Part shown: piece by piece, positions 39,586 through 39,997 of the stretch | How the letters are laid out: each line of letters begins with the position of its first letter | Numbering within the stretch: position 1 is the first letter of the stretch | Assembly: GCF_001677475.2 (NCBI RefSeq) | Contig: NZ_CP015229.1 | Origin: Escherichia coli | GTDB lineage: Bacteria > Pseudomonadota > Gammaproteobacteria > Enterobacterales > Enterobacteriaceae | DNA length: 64,000 nt | Strand: one strand, 5' to 3' | Position numbers and translations under genes: made by a program | The notes under the pieces: generated by a model | The model's database searches: none | What the model was told of the DNA's origin: nothing | The model's input: only the letters and a program-made list of their open reading frames with translations

Positions 39586-39798
39586 ATGTCTAATAAAATG
39601 ACTGGTTTAGTAAAATGGTTTAACGCAGATAAAGGTTTTGGCTTTATCACTCCTGATGATGGCAGCAAAGACGTTTTCGTCCATTTCACCGCCATCCAGA
39701 GCAATGAATTCCGCACGCTGAACGAAAATCAGAAAGTTGAATTTTCTATTGAGCAGGGGCAACGTGGTCCCGCGGCAGCGAACGTTGTTACGCTCTAA
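39586..39798 (+). CDS. cspG: Cold-shock protein CspG
   Basis: 70 aa, [21 protein letters not shown]; long AT-rich 5' UTR upstream. Confidence 0.95.
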
Positions 39799-39997
39799 GG
39801 TTGCCGTTATTACTCAACATCTCCATTTCCGCTGTCCATGTTGTCATGGTTCACAGTACCGCACATCGGCATTCGATGTGACGGAGCGAAACCCTTTGGG
39901 CGCTAAGTGTATTTTTTGTAAATCGACGATGATCACCTTTGATAACGTCGCGCTGCAAATACGCACTGAGCATGCGCCGCTGGATTTCACAAAATAA
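39764..39997 (+). CDS. Small Cys-rich (zinc-ribbon-like) hypothetical protein overlapping the cspG 3' end; may correspond to the ymcE/ymcF locus
   Basis: ORF 39737..39997 with CPCC...CIFC motifs; start uncertain (GTG 39764 suggested). Followed by a terminator. Confidence 0.4.

Follow-up and report, generated by a model that had tools for sequence, protein, structure and literature searches.

The window, a stretch of 64,000 nucleotides of Escherichia coli DNA (RefSeq contig NZ_CP015229.1), contains the gene cspG followed, ten nucleotides after its stop codon, by a second short gene and then by an intrinsic terminator. A preliminary description made from the letters alone had reported here a small zinc-ribbon-like open reading frame (ORF) running from 39764 to 39997 and overlapping the 3' end of cspG in another frame, and had left it undecided between a genuine overlapping small protein and a spurious ORF. 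The features of the locus, in window positions, are as follows.

39430 to 39852, plus strand: match to the cspA-type thermoregulator/mRNA (Rfam RF01766; 162 bits against a gathering threshold of 78, E 4e-44, full model from 1 to 428).
39586 to 39798, plus strand: cspG coding sequence, 70 amino acids, the upstream cistron (ORF list; Pfam CSD, 1.7e-33; RefSeq annotation of K-12 and O145).
39737 to 39808, plus strand: upstream extension of the ymcF frame, non-coding in that frame, with TTG at 39737, TTG at 39749, GTG at 39764 and TTG at 39785.
39796 to 39800, plus strand: TAAGG, stop codon of cspG and Shine-Dalgarno-like AAGG fused into one, 8 nt ahead of the ATT of ymcF (junction alignment).
39809 to 39811, plus strand: ATT, the ymcF start codon (start of the RefSeq coding sequence; homologous codon compared in 79 loci).
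39809 to 39997, plus strand: ymcF coding sequence, 62 codons plus stop, 189 nt (RefSeq, Pfam, dN/dS).
39833 to 39844, plus strand: first cysteine knuckle, C9-P-C11-C12 (C9 and C12 invariant and C11 nearly so in the A1 alignment of homologues).
39908 to 39919, plus strand: second cysteine knuckle, C34-I-F-C37 (C37 invariant and C34 nearly so in A1).
40002 to 40026, plus strand: intrinsic terminator, lying 4 nt beyond the stop codon of ymcF and ending the cspG-ymcF unit (terminator scan).

The ORF is the already known E. coli gene ymcF (b4723), which encodes a cold shock small protein of the Pfam family PF23641. In the RefSeq annotation of K-12 MG1655, ymcF is a coding sequence of 189 nt at 1051684–1051872, 10 nt past the end of cspG, and in the annotation of an O145 strain it again measures 189 nt, again lies 10 nt past cspG and carries the product name "cold shock small protein YmcF". 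Transferred to the window, the annotated gene occupies 39809–39997 with ATT as its first codon and ends on TAA at 39995–39997; locus and coordinates are thus those of the annotated K-12 gene. The window protein differs from K-12 YmcF by a single substitution, D54E (98% identity). It matches PF23641 (YmcF-like) with 163 bits against a cut-off of 27, with model positions 1–62 falling on residues 25–86 of the maximal ORF, that is, from the ATT onward, and it has every residue that is invariant in the alignment of the family, including the four-cysteine core. Of 5426 complete E. coli genomes, 5415 have the locus, and a 1.1-kb query around it matched 5387 complete genomes of the species with a coverage of 80% or more. 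As ymcF already stands in the K-12 annotation, RefSeq and Pfam, finding it here is in itself of little weight.

The gene was discovered by proteomics in 2017, by D'Lima and colleagues, who reportedly describe YmcF and its homologue YnfQ as cold-shock-induced proteins with ATT starts. A citing paper gives D'Lima et al. 2017 (J Proteome Res 16:3722) as the reference for AUU starts in bacteria. Our search of the full-text literature for ymcF, ynfQ, ynfR and b4723 found no paper describing a function of the YmcF protein. YnfR, a cold-induced peptide (VanOrsdel 2018), is a different protein, of 21 amino acids. The nomenclature also holds a collision: the 'ynfQ' of VanOrsdel et al. 2018 (PMC6001520, Table 1) is a 37-amino acid protein encoded between ydfJ and ydfK, unlike RefSeq ynfQ (b4724), which is the paralogue of ymcF that follows cspI.

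The match to RF01766 spans the 5' UTR and coding sequence of cspG and extends over the opening codons of ymcF. At the other end of the unit, the preliminary description had noted a clean terminator just past the ORF, and it is there: a hairpin at 40002–40020 (seven pairs, five of them GC) with a T run behind it that reaches about 40025. A GC hairpin and T run occupy the same place in most of the loci in which csp ends 9–10 nt upstream of ymcF. By homology to cspA, these features support a bicistronic, cold-regulated cspG-ymcF transcript. Expression of ymcF would then follow that of cspG, and the cspA-type cold-sensing 5' UTR upstream, like the RefSeq name and the 2017 proteomics report, suggests that YmcF would be made on cold shock. 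Taken as a whole, the locus is best explained by a cspG-ymcF transcript in which ymcF is the second cistron and which ends at the terminator at 40002–40026, a reading to which we give a probability of about 0.85.

In two Salmonella loci (L014 and L025), the Rfam sRNA family STnc220 (RF02077) matches at locus positions 2647–2726 with 102 bits against a gathering threshold of 60, over the ~43 nt at the end of the ymcF orthologue and its terminator, whereas window positions 39955–40035 of E. coli score only 29.9 bits. Given this position, the Salmonella 'sRNA' appears to be either the 3'-terminal part of the ymcF mRNA or a fragment derived from that part; STnc220 was probably defined before ymcF was annotated.

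The junction between the two genes has the geometry of coupled cistrons. The distance from stop to start is 10 nt here and 9–10 nt in 38 related loci, with a Shine-Dalgarno (SD) sequence at the junction itself. To place it among its relatives, we scanned one genome per species, which gave 191 related genomic loci, and fetched 80 of these, 79 of which enter the tally of start codons. The codon homologous to 39809 is ATT in 41 of these loci, ATG in 31 and ATC in 3, and otherwise an ATG lies within three codons of it. Which of these codons is found goes with the state of the csp gene upstream. Among the 42 loci with only ATT or ATC as a candidate start, 39 have an intact csp upstream, at a gap of 9–10 nt in 38 and of 29 nt in one, while no locus with an ATG at or beside codon 1 has an intact adjacent csp; the loci counted are phylogenetically related and so are not independent of one another.

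In the Klebsiella oxytoca group and Raoultella, csp has been lost in place: a disrupted remnant of its 3' end lies directly upstream of an ymcF with an ATG start (L033, L034, L039, L043, L044, L047, L048 and L053, at about 2420–2500; L033, L034, L043, L044 and L047 were aligned). In Citrobacter sedlakii (L021, 2297–2689), the 3' end of csp has lost 19 nt by deletion, which joins a degenerate csp to ymcF in a single ORF of 130 codons; the conserved csp motifs KWFN and VHF have become KEFN and VPS, and the ymcF start codon is ATG. The Enterobacter copies of ymcF stand alone in intergenic DNA and have an ATG, a strong CAGGAG SD and no cspA-type element.

The association of ATT or ATC with an intact csp, and of ATG with a csp that is absent or decayed, suggests translational coupling of ymcF to csp. 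Most initiation at the weak AUU would then come from ribosomes that had finished translating cspG immediately before, whether by translational coupling or by reinitiation, and YmcF output would be tied to Csp translation. On this comparison of loci, AUU or AUC may have been kept by selection only where ribosomes ending on an intact csp 9–10 nt upstream reinitiate, with AUG and a stronger SD taking over once csp is lost; we put the odds of this at about even. If it is true, ymcF would be a repeatedly evolved natural case of a near-cognate start serving as a coupling device, with YmcF synthesis slaved to Csp translation; in the literature that we searched, this is not described for the YmcF family. 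That ATT goes with csp, and ATG with its absence, is the only possibly new element in our analysis, and it provides a cheaply testable hypothesis on the use of a weak start.

The same junction could work without coupling. The 30S subunit would then bind the AAGG de novo, independently of cspG translation, and the AUU would set a low level of synthesis or confer sensitivity to IF3, as in infC. The AAGG is well placed for this, 8 nt upstream of ymcF, and three loci (L036, L070 and L081) keep the ATT, together with an AAGGA SD, although no csp is adjacent. There is likewise no conserved masking structure for csp translation to open: RNAalifold, run on 19 loci in which csp ends 9–10 nt upstream, gave −0.7 kcal/mol with no covariation. 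Independent initiation does not by itself account for the near-perfect link of ATT or ATC to an intact csp 9–10 nt upstream and of ATG to csp loss, nor for the ATG in two lineages whose csp has decayed in place. It also has to face the stop codon of csp being embedded in the SD at every locus with a stop 10 nt upstream; the motif T[A/G]AGG at −13 to −9 is invariant in these 35 loci, which were chosen for having their stop codon at −13 to −11, and only the GG at −10 and −9 is therefore informative. We regard independent initiation as possible but the less likely course, behind coupling to csp.

Two further observations belong to the junction. An RNA hairpin that would mask the SD and start codon until cspG has been translated was considered as a device and rejected: E. 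coli alone shows a candidate stem (GCGGCAGC/GUUGCCGU; z −1.75), and the RNAalifold run on the 19 loci found nothing conserved there. In two of the stand-alone loci, L036 (2483–2509) and L070, a mini-ORF of eight codons (ATG AAA AAA GGA TAC TAT TAT TAC TAA) lies across the ATT, and the AAGGA SD is inside it. Perhaps this mini-ORF takes the place of csp in coupling, or its presence is coincidental.

The open frame that gave rise to the reported overlap is real. It runs from 39737 to 39997, 86 codons counted from the first TTG, with GTG 39764 in frame, and it physically overlaps cspG by 35 nt from that GTG or by 62 nt from TTG 39737. Initiation at GTG 39764, TTG 39785 or TTG 39737 would make this a true out-of-frame overlap and would give a product of 70–86 residues, or a minor long isoform. 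In Escherichia the frame is indeed open back to 39719 and offers four canonical start codons, and some database entries from Citrobacter, Kosakonia, Trabulsiella and one phage are annotated with such upstream starts, at 70–72 amino acids. The comparison of loci speaks strongly against such a start. In many relatives, among them K-12 ynfQ, Kosakonia, several Citrobacter, Siccibacter and Pluralibacter, an in-frame stop lies 12–30 nt above codon 1 and no canonical start separates the two; in ynfQ, Kosakonia and several Citrobacter, the distance is 12–24 nt. Of the 35 loci whose ATT or ATC follows a stop codon at 10 nt, 9 show this arrangement. In-frame stops close the extension in Yokenella and Trabulsiella as well. 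The Pfam match excludes the extension, and both RefSeq and the K-12 annotation use the ATT.

The extension varies, moreover, as csp does. Over the last 20 codons of csp, entropy is 1.54 at the third csp codon position (the second in the ymcF frame), against 0.71 and 0.62 at the other two; read by position in the ymcF frame, the same stretch gives 0.62/1.54/0.71. As this upstream variation tracks the csp frame, the shared bases are not constrained as part of a ymcF coding sequence, and they show no coding constraint of their own of the kind expected of an overlapping gene. The recurrent TTG or ATG at −24 or −27 is explained by the csp codons for Asn-Val-Val.

With ATT, ATC or ATG at codon 1, in-frame stops above it and csp periodicity across the extension, the overlap with cspG is an artefact, produced only by carrying the open frame back as far as GTG 39764. 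Judged from these alignments, ymcF starts at ATT 39809, 10 nt past the cspG stop, and does not overlap cspG. An upstream start in the window is, on this evidence, very improbable, and in some Citrobacter a longer isoform could arise from an in-frame ATG 27 nt upstream. The proposal of a genuine overlapping small protein holds for the word genuine, by Pfam, dN/dS and the 191 loci, and fails for the word overlapping, as the conserved protein begins after the cspG stop. Likewise, conservation of the frame across relatives, which the preliminary description had named as a point on which its proposal could fail, is found for the core ORF and is lacking for the cspG-overlapping extension, with its in-frame stops and csp periodicity. 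A longest-ORF reading mis-delimits small genes with near-cognate starts, and this is how the false overlap arose; such genes also escape gene callers.

That ymcF is translated as a protein is plain from how it varies. Against the window gene, dN/dS is 0.03–0.10 over the 47-codon core, in the comparisons where dS is not saturated, and exceeds 1 in two control frames; entropy by ymcF codon position is 0.42/0.24/1.22. ymcF is a conserved protein-coding gene under strong purifying selection. A search of 5.8 billion proteins returned 137 homologues, all of them from Enterobacteriaceae or phage and mostly 62 amino acids long, and an exhaustive profile search of 1.84 billion representatives found only 42 proteins at E ≤ 0.001 and no link from YmcF to a larger family. 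The family is small and confined to Enterobacteriaceae and lambdoid phages. YmcF had no match in the PHROGs and PADLOC family libraries, and the copy of NCBIfam that we searched holds no scoring YmcF model.

In the A1 alignment of 38 homologues, residues 5–41 form a conserved core in which C9, C12 and C37 are invariant and C34, C11, H6 and H13 nearly invariant. A spurious ORF, that is, a frame open by chance over the cspG 3' region and terminator, has practically no chance of being the right account: the gene is short, lacks a canonical start at its conserved N-terminus, was missed by gene callers and is unannotated in six of nine phage records, but the strong purifying selection, the three invariant cysteines and one nearly invariant one across about 20 genera, the 191 genomic loci, the curated Pfam family and the RefSeq naming all contradict it.

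Two records would extend the family beyond Enterobacteriaceae and both look like contamination or mislabelling. One, titled Chryseobacterium sp. 18061 (L062), closely matches Citrobacter sp. 18056 (L059), from the same study, at the junction and downstream; the other, from Aeromonas hydrophila (P0027), is a partial fragment that shares 100% identity with the YmcF of E. coli.

The CPCC and CIFC motifs of the preliminary description are present as RCPCCHG (cysteine codons 39833–39844) and AKCIFCK (cysteine codons 39908–39919), and the conservation of their cysteines, another check it had proposed, is borne out by the three invariant and one nearly invariant cysteines across about 20 genera. The two knuckles, C9-x-x-C12 and C34-x-x-C37, are placed as expected for the binding of one metal ion, and a four-cysteine metal site in YmcF is well supported by the pattern of conservation. 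An AlphaFold2 model built from the 38-sequence alignment has a mean pLDDT of 72, and 84–90 for residues 11–40, and predicts three short strands, one helix and a disordered tail; from this model, we are moderately confident that YmcF adopts a compact fold with short beta strands. The top matches of the model in a Foldseek search of the PDB were the zinc ribbons of TFIIE-alpha, eL43 and TFIIB, none of them significant, and a sequence search of the PDB gave motif-level matches only, with the zinc modules of UvrA and with CPCHGSQY, the Rieske box II (E 0.02–0.05).

The zinc-ribbon-like reading proposed at the outset fits both the cysteine pattern and these weak fold matches, all of which are zinc ribbons; the fold class and the metal are plausible. 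YmcF would bind one metal ion, most likely Zn, as a putative zinc ribbon or rubredoxin-like knuckle. Our best guess on its role, held with low confidence, is that YmcF might be a nucleic-acid- or ribosome-associated zinc-ribbon cofactor acting beside the Csp RNA chaperones in the cold. The first knuckle (window 39830–39859) also resembles the Rieske [2Fe-2S] box II (FKCP-CHGSQY) and the CPxCHG of UvrA (E 0.02–0.05), and H13 is nearly invariant, so that YmcF may have a Cys/His site or a site for a metal other than zinc.

The chromosomal order cspG-ymcF-ymcE-gnsA is a paralogue of a mobile phage module. In lambdoid phages, this module lies 3' of the lysis genes; phage Tritos has the order endolysin, Rz, a cspI-like gene, a gap of 10 nt, an ymcF-like gene, ynfN and gnsB, and the version in the Qin prophage reads cspI-ynfQ-ynfR-ynfN-gnsB. 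A YmcF homologue is encoded in nine phage records, in six of which nothing is annotated over it, and in phage HannyBb (L084, homologue at 1501–1689) an opposite-strand 'hypothetical protein' has been called across it at 1545–1745. Gene callers probably missed the phage copies because of their ATT start.

The ymcE ORF of the chromosomal version (window 39972–40202) starts inside ymcF and reads through the intrinsic terminator at 40002–40026. E. albertii and two further Escherichia lineages have AGG in place of its ATG, and stops or frameshifts interrupt the ymcE frame in four of five Escherichia relatives. The case for ymcE as a protein-coding gene, and with it for the Pfam family 'YmcE_antitoxin', looks weak.

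Several known systems resemble parts of this locus. With the zinc ribbons of TFIIE-alpha (PDB 1vd4), the TFIIB N-terminal domain and eL43, YmcF shares two CxxC knuckles about 21 residues apart and, in the predicted fold, short beta strands. The YnfU/ECs_2282 family (NCBIfam NF047912) is also made of small proteins of the form CxxC...CxxC and is encoded near csp genes in the Qin prophage, but has no demonstrable homology to YmcF; we rejected a relationship on an hhalign probability of 1.6% and a weak NCBIfam match (E 0.006, 16 bits against a cut-off of 37).

At the level of translation, the likeness is to coupled gene pairs, namely operons that work by termination and reinitiation, and to the AUU of infC. 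The infC AUU start serves the autoregulation of IF3. ymcF likewise has a stop-to-start distance of 9–10 nt, an SD lying over the upstream stop codon and an AUU; the coupled pairs are known as such, whereas coupling of ymcF is proposed from the comparison of sequences. The closest counterparts are the K-12 genes of the YmcF/YnfQ family (b4723 and b4724). The K-12 ymcF occupies the same spot 10 nt after cspG and has the same ATT start and length, so that nothing material sets the window gene apart from it. Its K-12 paralogue ynfQ follows cspI at 10 nt in the Qin prophage and repeats the architecture of cspG-ymcF in the window.
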